Below are positions 46,655 to 51,957 of a DNA stretch of 64,000 nucleotides, piece by piece (position 1 is the first letter of the stretch; every line of letters begins with the position of its first letter). The notes under the pieces were generated by a model, which had not been told where the DNA came from, did no database searches, and saw nothing but the letters and a program-made list of their open reading frames with translations. The stretch comes from a virus (taxonomy: Duplodnaviria; Caudoviricetes): positions 224,001-288,000 of IMG/VR virus record IMGVR_UViG_3300015615_000196. The stretch is one strand, 5' to 3'. Position numbers and translations under genes: made by a program.

Positions 46655-46870
46655 ATGCTTAACGAAGAGTTTACCAAGGTCGAAATCAGAAAAATTGTCA
46701 ATGATGAACTTGATAAAGCCATGAGAGACAAGCTGAAACGTGAAATTGTGGCATCTTTGAAGAGCGGTGCAGGTAGAGGGGAAGTGAACGATATTGTGAA
46801 AAACGGACTCAATGCACTCTATAAGTTCCTCTGGACTAAGCGTAGTAGCTGGAACAACGAAATAAAGTAA
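46655..46870 (+). CDS. small late protein
   Basis: Follows TATTTAT at 46638; begins MLNEEF. Confidence 0.65.
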   Translation: MLNEEFTKVEIRKIVNDELDKAMRDKLKREIVASLKSGAGRGEVNDIVKNGLNALYKFLWTKRSSWNNEIK

Positions 46871-49800: not shown

Positions 49801-51957
49801 GGAGAATTGAAGAATCCAAGTCCGGCAGTTGCTAAAGCAGCTAAGTCAATGAGTGACAAGGATGCGGAAGATTTTGCATCAACCAAGCACAAAGGTCTAC
49901 CGAACCATGTGAAGAAAAAGAAGAAAAAAGTGGATGAAGGTTTATTCACTCCATCACAAGAATTGAATATTGATCAAATCAGATCGGTAATCGATAACTT
50001 CAAACAATCTCCTGAGTCATCAGATTTGAGAGACAAGTTCGTAAAGGCAAAAGACTACGTTAAGTCAAAGGCCGGACACGTTGCAAGAATGCCACAGTTG
50101 AAAATGTGGTTAGACCAGAATATGCCACAGCTTTCAAACTATGTAGGCATGTTATGGGGCAATTGGGACTTGATGCCATCGAACTCAGGAATGTTACAAG
50201 AAAATAAAGGAACAATGAAAATAGACGAAAAAGCATACAAGGACTTCTTCAAGTCAGAATTGAAGAAGACTGGTAAGTCACTCGGTTCAATGAGTGCAGG
50301 TGAAAAGAAAGTACTCTTTGAACAAGTAGACAAAGGCTTCAAGAAGTTGAATGAAAGCATTATCGATGATCAGCCGGATTCTATGGTTAACAATCAAGAA
50401 TCATCAATGGCAAAGAGCATGGATTCAGACGAACTCAATAAAGATGGTATGCCAGCAGCTTCTTCGTCAGCACCATCATCATCTGAACCACAGCCGAATG
50501 GCGTTAGTGGTGTAAGTGAAATCACTGAGGTATCGGAAGAAGAACCACAGTACTTTCATTCAGGTGCTGATGACCCACAAGTAGCATTGGATGCTGCTAA
50601 GTTCAGAGAAATGTTGAAGACCAAGTACGGTGTTGAAAGTGTGTCACAATTGTCACCAGCACAACGTCATGAGTTAATGAAGAGCATGAACTTTGGTGGT
50701 GAAAAGCCAGCAGATCAGATTGCTCAAGCACAACATAAGACTGACGATGATAGAGCAGCATATGCAAAGTTAAATGATCCTACTGAGGCATTGGCTTTTT
50801 TGAATCAGCGTGTAGACTCAATGGAAACACCAGAAGACTACAAGCGTGTAGCAAGCGAATTTAAGCAAGCTACTGGAAAGAGCATGTTACATCCGATGGC
50901 TATTTATGGTGTAATCCAGAACATGTCACCGGAGGAAAGACAGAATTACAATAAACTCGAACAATATTTCAGATTGAATATGAGCGATAAACAAACCGTA
51001 AACGAAGAAAGAAAAGTCCCTGCTATTCTTAATGTTGAAAAACTTGGAGCAGAGAATGCGAAGAATTTCGCTAAAGATAACGCAGAGGAAGATGCACTTA
51101 AACAGGACAAGACCTATCCAAAAGATGATGGTATCCACAAGGCTCCGGTATGGCCTGATCCTAAGACGTTCTACATTGAACAAGGAAAAGGAACTTCTCA
51201 AGAATTAGCAAAGGAACAAACCAAAGAAGCTAAGTCAATGGCTGACATTGAAGCAGAAGTTCTTGCAAAGACCAAAGGTGCATTGGAGAACATTGGCAAT
51301 TCAACTGCCGATGGCAAGCATATTCCGAAGAGAAATCTTACCAAAGAAGAAGGTTACGAACTTGCTATGAACAGAGGTGATGGTATGCAAGATATTGTGT
51401 ACGATTTGAAGCCGTCTGAGAAGTTCGAAGATCGCATGAAGAAAGACATGGGAGATCATGTTTACAAGAGCAGACAAGACAAAATGGACTACAAAGCAGA
51501 GGCTCCGATGTACAACAAGGATACCCAACCTGTTGAAGATGGTGATGACAAGAACCAGTACAACAAATTTGCAAAGGGATATAACCTTCACGAAGTAAGT
51601 GCAAGATACAAGGATGATTTGGGTAAAGGACACCTTGTTGAATTCAAACTTGGCGAAGTTGAAGAGGTTACTACCATTGCAGACAACTATGTAAAGTTGA
51701 GCATCGATGGTATGGGTAACAAGTACTCTATCGCAGGTAAGAAAATGAACGAGAACAAAGGCTTCAATGAAATGATGGAGAAGTATAGCTTCTTCATGAA
51801 CGAAAATAAGATTGTTGCTATCGAGAAGTCGAAAGTGATTGTTGAGACCAAGATTCCAGTGAAGGGCAACGTCAATGAATCATTGCAAAAAATGAAGCAC
51901 TTGATGAACTATAAGCCTACTGATTATGTTGATACAAAGAAGTCAGTAAAGTTTTAA
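46870..51957 (+). CDS. 1695-aa modular acidic polyprotein (probable internal head protein) containing a DUF3008-like module
   Basis: More than 20 hydrophobic-x-E motifs; ASSKSQQRFMGMVHAAQKGE...AKSM..KDAEDFASTKHKGLP is DUF3008-like. Confidence 0.7.
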   Translation: MEGSFNSKNIKPSLTTPTKMGKQLDSNFKSQIRKSGMKLSENGMLHEKEESLKKKIFKLDKMETLVHTDENLSKVFNEMKQDAAEKFGYHWNETILNIIFNDYVLNSPKNLQKYKNTRAKPKKRRGEEGIKELQNDIDKEKAASSGAEERKEKLMGGDDKEKVDEFFNFGKSAATELPMNQRSKNDTYFVDMRNKKLLAPVPYNASQEAKQAIISKYVGQPNIKQLAWYDAVKQGIKGVPTEVPDGSIQQIDQELQQRYGNDLQTIPALGENLGQPVTSAFTLAKIIAGLLPDQYTQKDFNTALENYFVDHGMDFAKLNNQEYVQDISHFLASDFGKTQMDETTGAAGAGAFAPALDNQKPVTEEKTANYVGEDEWSRKVYRSEDGTMYVDVDGVLHSVTPEGEPIAPVSGVQIVDSIKETTTSASSGQYSGPAIWAKNPNKSRWAHRPAWHGGKILESVVDKRNDYLTEAGAFKKYLINNMLFEAVNMGMMEAESFQDHAKRIKAVLDKYLADTPEIANADGFKDAYEFSKYEAETGKAHPNRGKGNVDQEVNEHHLHSKQEKIDFILQYTYDDASDSATHSTEELNAMSDGEIENLYRSTEKKIGLDEFFSFGKKDQPVANNQELSIGQLSGYKNNIINVLRNLKFGEQMIDALNKTYDQIVIKGLKNGVPADVLAQKIAAHYSGQQVSLPEQDDTNFRETMVKDLKYNGKPASDSESTEELESQDGLFKGKWNSNTSVAENDEEMDVVEERPRPQDDDCFVSSNGFKLSASCGDKYIGEFTEDEAAWEAVRNWKKENNYYPNTWFISDHGNESLVDDDGNEIKEGFGGDPEVGEDQYKEEQDYNRFAALEQQSKELAQLRDAGDEGALKAKIDSLQVIPMINHSGGYEDGLGHRDLEKLGYTRITHDYSFDEDGEFVINNISNKPIVMIDERGIRGIINPGESDIDENTSIRLHEKASSKSQQRFMGMVHAAQKGELKNPSPAVAKAAKSMSDKDAEDFASTKHKGLPNHVKKKKKKVDEGLFTPSQELNIDQIRSVIDNFKQSPESSDLRDKFVKAKDYVKSKAGHVARMPQLKMWLDQNMPQLSNYVGMLWGNWDLMPSNSGMLQENKGTMKIDEKAYKDFFKSELKKTGKSLGSMSAGEKKVLFEQVDKGFKKLNESIIDDQPDSMVNNQESSMAKSMDSDELNKDGMPAASSSAPSSSEPQPNGVSGVSEITEVSEEEPQYFHSGADDPQVALDAAKFREMLKTKYGVESVSQLSPAQRHELMKSMNFGGEKPADQIAQAQHKTDDDRAAYAKLNDPTEALAFLNQRVDSMETPEDYKRVASEFKQATGKSMLHPMAIYGVIQNMSPEERQNYNKLEQYFRLNMSDKQTVNEERKVPAILNVEKLGAENAKNFAKDNAEEDALKQDKTYPKDDGIHKAPVWPDPKTFYIEQGKGTSQELAKEQTKEAKSMADIEAEVLAKTKGALENIGNSTADGKHIPKRNLTKEEGYELAMNRGDGMQDIVYDLKPSEKFEDRMKKDMGDHVYKSRQDKMDYKAEAPMYNKDTQPVEDGDDKNQYNKFAKGYNLHEVSARYKDDLGKGHLVEFKLGEVEEVTTIADNYVKLSIDGMGNKYSIAGKKMNENKGFNEMMEKYSFFMNENKIVAIEKSKVIVETKIPVKGNVNESLQKMKHLMNYKPTDYVDTKKSVKF

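Follow-up and report, generated by a model that had tools for sequence, protein, structure and literature searches.

P0001 and its transcription unit

The virus record IMGVR_UViG_3300015615_000196 of the IMG/VR database comprises 362,603 bp with terminal repeats and represents an uncultured T4-like jumbo phage. We analyzed a 64,000-nucleotide (nt) stretch of this record (bases 224001 to 288000; here, the window), which contains the open reading frame (ORF) P0001, encoding a chain of 1,695 amino acids (aa) rich in Lys, Glu, and Asp that is described below as a polyprotein (Table 1). As the original prediction from the nucleotide sequence had it, the ORF is open at full length; the protein continues, however, for 14 residues beyond the HLMNY segment that was then given as its end. 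An assembly artifact or a fusion of ORFs is ruled out by the presence of more than 130 collinear homologs.

The transcription unit of P0001 is flanked on both sides by terminator-like hairpins and opens with a GTATTTAT box. The sequence GTATTTAT(A) is present in 75 copies in the genome, against about 30 expected, and 40 of these are correctly oriented at 6 to 89 nt ahead of an ORF. The box is also found ahead of the portal gene, the scaffold gene, a 1,607-aa YadA-like ORF, and an 877-aa BNR-like ORF, and it is probably a promoter element of the phage, perhaps a late one. In at least 57 of 60 related loci, a counterpart of the 71-aa ORF that precedes P0001 lies upstream of the P0001 homolog, in most cases immediately so; this ORF had no match in PHROGs and could encode a chaperone or loading partner. 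A programmed frameshift from this ORF into P0001 was considered and rejected, with only seven open codons upstream in the P0001 frame and no slippery heptamer. Farther upstream lies a 247-aa ORF (window positions 45837 to 46580, plus strand) whose N- and C-terminal segments are hydrophobic. It keeps synteny with the polyprotein gene in most related loci, and a terminator-like hairpin separates the two.

Table 1. Features of the P0001 locus and the prohead protease gene (window positions unless indicated; module ends are given by their last tripeptide)
Feature	Position	Strand	Description
Terminator-like hairpin	46608..46632	+	Closes the upstream gene
GTATTTAT promoter-like box	46637..46644	+	11 nt ahead of the 71-aa ORF
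71-aa ORF	46655..46870	+	Stop overlaps P0001 start (TAATG)
P0001, polyprotein ORF	46870..51957	+	Open, 1,695 aa
aa 1-41, leader	46870..46992	+	Basic, pI 10.1; ends LSE41
aa 42-165, universal helical N-module	46993..47364	+	Ends VDE165; in 118/119 homologs; pLDDT 85-93
aa 166-271, variable alpha/beta module	47365..47682	+	Begins FFNFGK; ends LGE271
aa 272-342, variable helical module	47683..47895	+	Ends MDE342
aa 343-420	47896..48129	+	First copy of the capsid-protein-site motif, then a small beta module; ends E420
aa 421-458	48130..48243	+	Second, near-invariant copy of the capsid-protein site; pI 10.4; ends ILE458; in 77/119 homologs
aa 459-555, helical module	48244..48534	+	Ends VNE555
aa 556-610, small module	48535..48699	+	Ends LDE610
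aa 611-827	48700..49350	+	Begins FFSFGK; helical modules and a long acidic disordered stretch; ends IKE827
aa 828-958, variable helix-plus-beta module	49351..49743	+	Ends LHE958
aa 959-1023, DUF3008 module	49744..49938	+	Basic, pI 10.1; ends VDE1023
aa 1024-1111, variable helical module	49939..50202	+	Ends LQE1111
aa 1112-1162, small helical module	50203..50355	+	Basic; ends LNE1162
aa 1163-1379	50356..51006	+	69-residue disordered acidic linker, then a helical domain (weak GemA-like match); ends VNE1379
aa 1380-1670, universal C-module	51007..51879	+	Helical part and small beta domain; ends VNE1670
aa 1671-1695, C-terminal helix and tail	51880..51954	+	Basic; resembles the scaffold protein C terminus
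106-aa thioredoxin-domain ORF	51961..52281	+	Last gene of the apparent unit; conserved in close relatives only
Terminator-like hairpin	52307..52332	+	Ends the transcription unit
Prohead protease ORF	Genome 124581-125375 (outside the window)		9-residue N-terminal leader

Module anatomy and conserved glutamate sites

A word-indexed search retrieved 138 homologs of P0001, which are 900 to 1,850 aa long and located on contigs of up to 371 kb. An exhaustive search with the C-module yielded 159 representatives at 50% identity, and an alignment-based scan located 60 IMG/VR loci that carry a P0001 homolog. A scan of IMG/VR with the single P0001 protein gave no match, and when 50,697 phage records were searched by tblastn with the full-length protein, the DUF3008 piece alone matched, in cyanophages. 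All family members contain aa 42-165 and aa 1380-1670, and most also contain the DUF3008 module, the segment aa 421-458, and the tail; in the 150 listed of the 159 representatives, the C-module ends at the C terminus or within a few residues of it. The remaining modules are present or absent as whole units among relatives, so that variable cassettes lie between shared modules. Pfam DUF3008 (PF11450) matched aa 960-1014 (nt 49747-49911) over the full profile length (30.5 bits versus a cutoff of 24), in agreement with the DUF3008-like module noted earlier. PHROG family phrog_14085 matched aa 367-409.

The boundaries of the modules in homologs coincide with Glu motifs of the hydrophobic-x-Glu (h-x-E) type. 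Seven Glu residues (E41, E165, E420, E458, E958, E1379, and E1670) are nearly invariant, and each is the P1 residue of a motif and lies in a short conserved island flanked by indels. Approximately 15 to 18 sites are conserved across the homologs, and the conserved sites of P0001 have Leu, Ile, Val, or Met at P3. Relatives without DUF3008, or with another module in its place, show the deletion edge at the flanking Glu sites. All of the tripeptides that had been named as module separators are present in P0001, and so are the paired post-Glu sequences, that is, VDE/FFNFGK (nt 47356) with LDE/FFSFGK (nt 48691) and MDE/TTGAAGAGAF (nt 47887) with IKE/TTTSASSGQY (nt 48121), where the slash follows Glu; in the homolog alignment, these pairs are conserved islands between indels. 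More than 60 free-standing DUF3008 proteins start with M-P-A-x-S-K-A-Q-Q, with the start Met at the Glu958 position, and the genes for them begin at the point where the module itself would begin after the predicted cut at Glu958. For a free-standing DUF3008 protein of 69 aa, gp93 of cyanophage S-SCSM1, the GenBank record gives a virion-protein annotation, and virion proteins of this phage were called by mass spectrometry (PMC9602691).

The tighter motif h-[N/D]-E, with Asn or Asp before Glu, occurs 13 times in P0001 versus 4.1 expected (Poisson p 3e-4), which ranks third among 372 ORFs of the genome. The scaffold is the top ORF by this measure (9 versus 1.6 expected), and the ORF directly after the portal gene is the fourth. 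Across 120 family members the motif is 3.4-fold more frequent than in shuffled sequences, these counts being nonindependent because the members are related. The second place is held by P0241, a 262-aa ORF without a family match (window positions 3723 to 4511, plus strand; 6 versus 0.6 expected), which may encode another head-core protein or protease substrate.

Structures were predicted using AlphaFold2 with family alignments, in two models covering aa 1-1200 and aa 1163-1695. The mean predicted local distance difference test (pLDDT) score was 67, and the predicted TM scores (pTM) were 0.30 and 0.33. The models contain 16 to 18 confident small domains and 17 low-confidence linkers of at least 8 residues. 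Given these pTM values and the many low-confidence linkers, P0001 does not form one continuous fold. A single family-conserved Glu site is found in 14 of the 17 low-pLDDT linkers, and 11 of the 15 strictly conserved h-x-E sites lie in a linker or within 2 residues of one, compared with 53 of all 151 Glu residues (hypergeometric p 0.002). E41, for example, is located in a low-pLDDT stretch (residues 35 to 56), and the leader that it closes is a candidate capsid-targeting propeptide.

Cuts at these sites would yield fragments of 3 to 33 kDa, of which five are basic (isoelectric point [pI] 9.6 to 10.4) and the others neutral to acidic, most of the large ones being acidic (pI 4.4 to 5.6). The original prediction of a bead-on-a-string precursor thus holds for the modular anatomy and the Glu-motif boundaries; the predicted products are larger than the "small peptides" it had proposed, and no result supports its suggestion that modules are candidate anti-defense or DNA-binding factors, DUF3008 being the only fold or family match. 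Pfam searches of P0001 and 38 relatives returned DUF3008, DUF6926, and a weak GemA match only, with no conflict enzymes or embedded peptidase. Foldseek searches of the PDB with both models gave nothing at E <= 0.001, and a family profile against PDB sequences gave nothing below E 0.06. The best hit of a wide VIA-align search with aa 1163-1695 (Z 5.5; Sap1 DNA-binding domain, 80 residues) does not rise above the noise level of helical domains, and the C-module retrieved unnamed clusters only from the ESM Atlas (scores of 0.78 or less). Taken together, Pfam, PHROGs, PDB profiles, Foldseek, VIA-align, and the ESM Atlas returned nothing convincing on the function of the fragments.

Cuts at E165 and E610 would expose an N-terminal Phe, Leu, or Trp family-wide (aa 166 and 611; window positions 47365 and 48700). 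These are classic residues of bacterial ClpS/ClpAP N-degrons, and by analogy a timed destruction in the host of the fragments starting at these positions is a possibility.

Head-assembly genes and their likeness to P0001

The genome encodes a T4-type head module with portal, protease, scaffold-like, and capsid genes, located approximately 100 kb upstream of the window. The prohead protease matches Peptidase_S77 (T4 gp21) in Pfam (75.7 bits versus a cutoff of 27) and aligns with PDB entry 5JBL (E 5e-13); at the places aligned with 5JBL, it has a His in a DHP motif and a Ser in an SSRG motif, which we take to be the catalytic residues, as in T4 gp21. Its leader ends with LHE directly before GKIL. 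Two relatives have leaders of 9 or 11 residues ending with IRE or LRE, and two others begin at M-SKIL. In sequence, this leader pattern of the phage and its relatives matches the self-processing of T4 gp21, which removes nine of its own N-terminal residues (PMC9958956). The capsid protein belongs to the Gp23 family (E 2e-64), its closest relatives being those of uncultured huge phages, Microcystis phage Mel-JY01, and Rak2-like jumbo phages. An acidic 503-aa scaffold-like (gp22-like) gene sits between the protease and capsid protein genes.

In the capsid protein, the final h-x-E ahead of the conserved core is LNE61/STDSASSGQF, which is invariant or nearly so in five relatives and represents a predicted maturation site. 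A pattern describing this site has three matches in 2,508 ORFs of the genome, namely, the capsid site itself and the P0001 junctions E342 and E420; as the pattern was composed after the sequences had been viewed, its uniqueness is partly built in and serves as a lead, not as a statistic. By their sequences, the two junctions are copies of the predicted capsid site. The original prediction regarded the recurring post-Glu sequences as possible sorting signals. Because one of the pairs copies the predicted capsid site, it is no less likely that the recurring sequences reflect a longer context of the protease sites or mimic the N-arm of the capsid protein.

These sites also bear on whether P0001 is cut at all. 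An uncut multidomain protein of the virion, kept internally or ejected as one chain, might use the Glu motifs of its linkers for another purpose, such as partner binding. There is precedent for large proteins that are packaged uncut, such as the N4 virion RNA polymerase (PMC5512222), and some conserved h-x-E sites of P0001 lie inside a folded domain (see below). However, an uncut chain would not be expected to carry a single conserved Glu site per linker or two junctions that copy the predicted maturation site of the capsid protein, and both the free-standing DUF3008 proteins and the leaderless protease homologs begin exactly at a predicted cut. We therefore regard an uncut chain as unlikely.

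A second likeness links P0001 to the scaffold. The end of P0001 (VNE/SLQKMKHLMNY...) resembles the end of the scaffold (LNE/HVEKIKRLSTY...), the likeness recurs in five relatives, and a tail motif matches the scaffold and P0001 only, with the same reservation that it was written after the sequences had been seen. A complex prediction for the capsid protein with aa 1575-1695 scored 0.00 and carries no weight either way. The tail, together with the h-[N/D]-E enrichment common to both proteins, the scaffold-like acidity of most large fragments, and the lack of a recognizable activity in any module, is what would be expected if P0001 were an accessory scaffold, a head-core helper for a very large capsid that is loaded, cut, and cleared like gp22, with its pieces as waste. 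Many of the modules, however, are conserved small domains with confident folds, features that mere filler could do without. DUF3008 also exists as a free gene, and in a cultured cyanophage with mass spectrometry-based virion calls the product of such a gene has a virion-protein annotation. Moreover, the cassettes differ among relatives, as expected for cargo rather than for a size-setting scaffold. An accessory scaffold accordingly has a low probability.

A further alternative would place P0001 outside the virion, as a modular protein of the cytoplasm that the head protease never touches. The position of its gene, far from the head module and with replication and repair genes among its neighbors, is in keeping with such a role. 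The genes for the internal proteins and Alt of T4 likewise lie away from the head genes, though, and P0001 has a promoter-like box in common with the portal and scaffold genes, a site logic in common with the capsid, scaffold, and protease proteins, and in its DUF3008 module a relative that is annotated as a virion protein. We consider a nonvirion role very improbable.

Other ORFs of the window include, on the minus strand, a 1,100-aa ORF (positions 56536 to 59838) that combines an SbcD-like calcineurin-like phosphoesterase and an SbcC-like AAA_23/SMC region in one chain. On the plus strand, the 1,607-aa ORF (positions 31976 to 36799) has YadA-head repeats and is probably a fiber or adhesin gene; it is directly followed by a patatin-like phospholipase ORF (positions 36812 to 37786). 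A 987-aa ORF (positions 4527 to 7490, plus strand) has a poly(A) polymerase/CCA-adding head domain in its C-terminal third.

Proposed processing and comparison with known systems

A chain of small folded modules whose linkers nearly all carry a protease signal is most readily explained by loading into the capsid and subsequent chopping. P0001 is thus probably a head-loaded polyprotein in which the gp21-type protease makes one cut per linker. Under this proposal, P0001 would be expressed from a GTATTTAT-type promoter along with the head genes, in translational coupling with the conserved 71-aa ORF, and would co-assemble with the scaffolding core, targeted by the 41-residue leader, the scaffold-tail-like C-terminal helix, or both. 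The activated protease would then cut after Glu in h-x-E (often h-[N/D]-E) motifs, nearly one per disordered linker, to release approximately 15 fragments of 3 to 33 kDa. The basic fragments (i.e., the leader, aa 421-458, DUF3008, aa 1112-1162, and the tail) would probably remain with the DNA and may enter the host, and the acidic ones may leave the head as scaffold pieces do.

Several points weigh against this proposal. (i) Both the cleavage and the packaging of P0001 are inferred from sequence and models, and the independence of the domains is read from pTM and pLDDT, without the predicted aligned error. (ii) The conserved h-x-E sites E1591, E1628, and E1645 are inside a confidently folded beta domain, and therefore conservation alone does not mark a cut site. 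(iii) At E420, most relatives have Gln at P3 instead of a hydrophobic residue. (iv) The loose motif [LIVMF]-x-E occurs 50 times in P0001, where about 34 are expected from composition, an excess of about 1.5-fold that is weak by itself. (v) The capsid site at E61 is deduced from motif and position, and an alignment with T4 would put the mature end of the capsid protein approximately 16 residues before it. (vi) A BLAST comparison of P0001 with the scaffold is not significant (E 0.57), the likeness being in the last 24 or so residues, and the capsid-site and tail patterns are after-the-fact constructions. (vii) The gene is located approximately 145 kb away from the head module.

A broader reading, which we put forward tentatively and hold to be somewhat less probable than the processing of P0001 itself, is that a single gene product brings a fixed set of about 10 to 16 small proteins into the capsid in hundreds of uncultured T4-like jumbo phages. 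The head protease would release these proteins, and cassettes would be swapped at the cut sites. With junctions that duplicate the capsid site and a tail that duplicates the scaffold tail, the cargo would ride the normal pathway of assembly and maturation, and the exchange of cassettes would make this a modular delivery system for small host-directed factors. If so, a large group of uncultured giant phages would apply the polyprotein logic of RNA viruses to capsid cargo, obtaining many small proteins in equal amounts from a single gene with a single protease and trading cassettes at the cut sites. A simple sequence rule would then be available to find packaged or injected phage proteins in metagenomes, and the modules would form a set of tiny new folds, including DUF3008, as candidates for host takeover or DNA condensation. 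The leader, linker, and tail would provide natural design rules for loading foreign proteins into T4-like heads. Our literature searches found no paper on such polyproteins and none on DUF3008.

Free-standing DUF3008 proteins of T4-like cyanophages (e.g., S-SCSM1 gp93) are 64 to 67% identical to aa 951-1011 of P0001; they are encoded by separate small genes, whereas the DUF3008 of P0001 is one bead of a polyprotein. In Synechococcus phage S-SCSM1, the free gene is immediately preceded by the gene for gp92, a Lys-rich, modular protein of 520 aa that carries several h-x-E motifs and a DxDxDG-type loop and has a virion-protein annotation. From these sequence features, gp92 may be an example of the P0001 design in a cultured phage.

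The polyvalent proteins (Iyer et al. 2017, PMC5512222) resemble P0001 in that each chain contains many unrelated domains, is packaged, and is thought to be released as separate units. They differ in containing known conflict enzymes and an embedded peptidase (MPTase), both absent from P0001 and the 38 scanned relatives; the release of P0001 modules would instead depend on the head protease in trans.

In the giant phages phiKZ, 201phi2-1, and SPN3US (proteases gp175 and gp245), proteins of the head, the inner body, and ejection are processed. Many of their head proteins are cut after Glu, some of them at several sites, and are then ejected (PMC5694885; PMC10052503). The motif of these phages has Ala, Ser, or Gly at P3, unlike the sites of P0001, and the cuts mainly remove long propeptides; the processed proteins are not chains of unrelated minimodules, and no homology between them and P0001 was found.

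The closest parallel in logic is the processing of IPI-III and Alt by gp21 in T4. The source phage is likewise T4-like, with a gp21-family protease and predicted cuts after Glu in h-x-E, and P0001 has a conserved N-terminal leader with an h-x-E end, although this leader is longer than those of the T4 proteins. Alt is cut at both ends (ITE-6 and LTE-619; PMC5694885). P0001 showed no similarity to IPI-III, Alt, or any T4 internal protein in Pfam and PHROG comparisons. The internal proteins of T4 are single products that lose a leader of 6 to 20 residues (PMC5694885), whereas P0001 has about 15 junctions, about 16 modules, and a 41-residue leader. In its proposed design, P0001 would be an extension of the logic of IPI-III, Alt, and gp21 in T4, and of that of the processed heads of phiKZ and SPN3US, to a chain of many unrelated modules.

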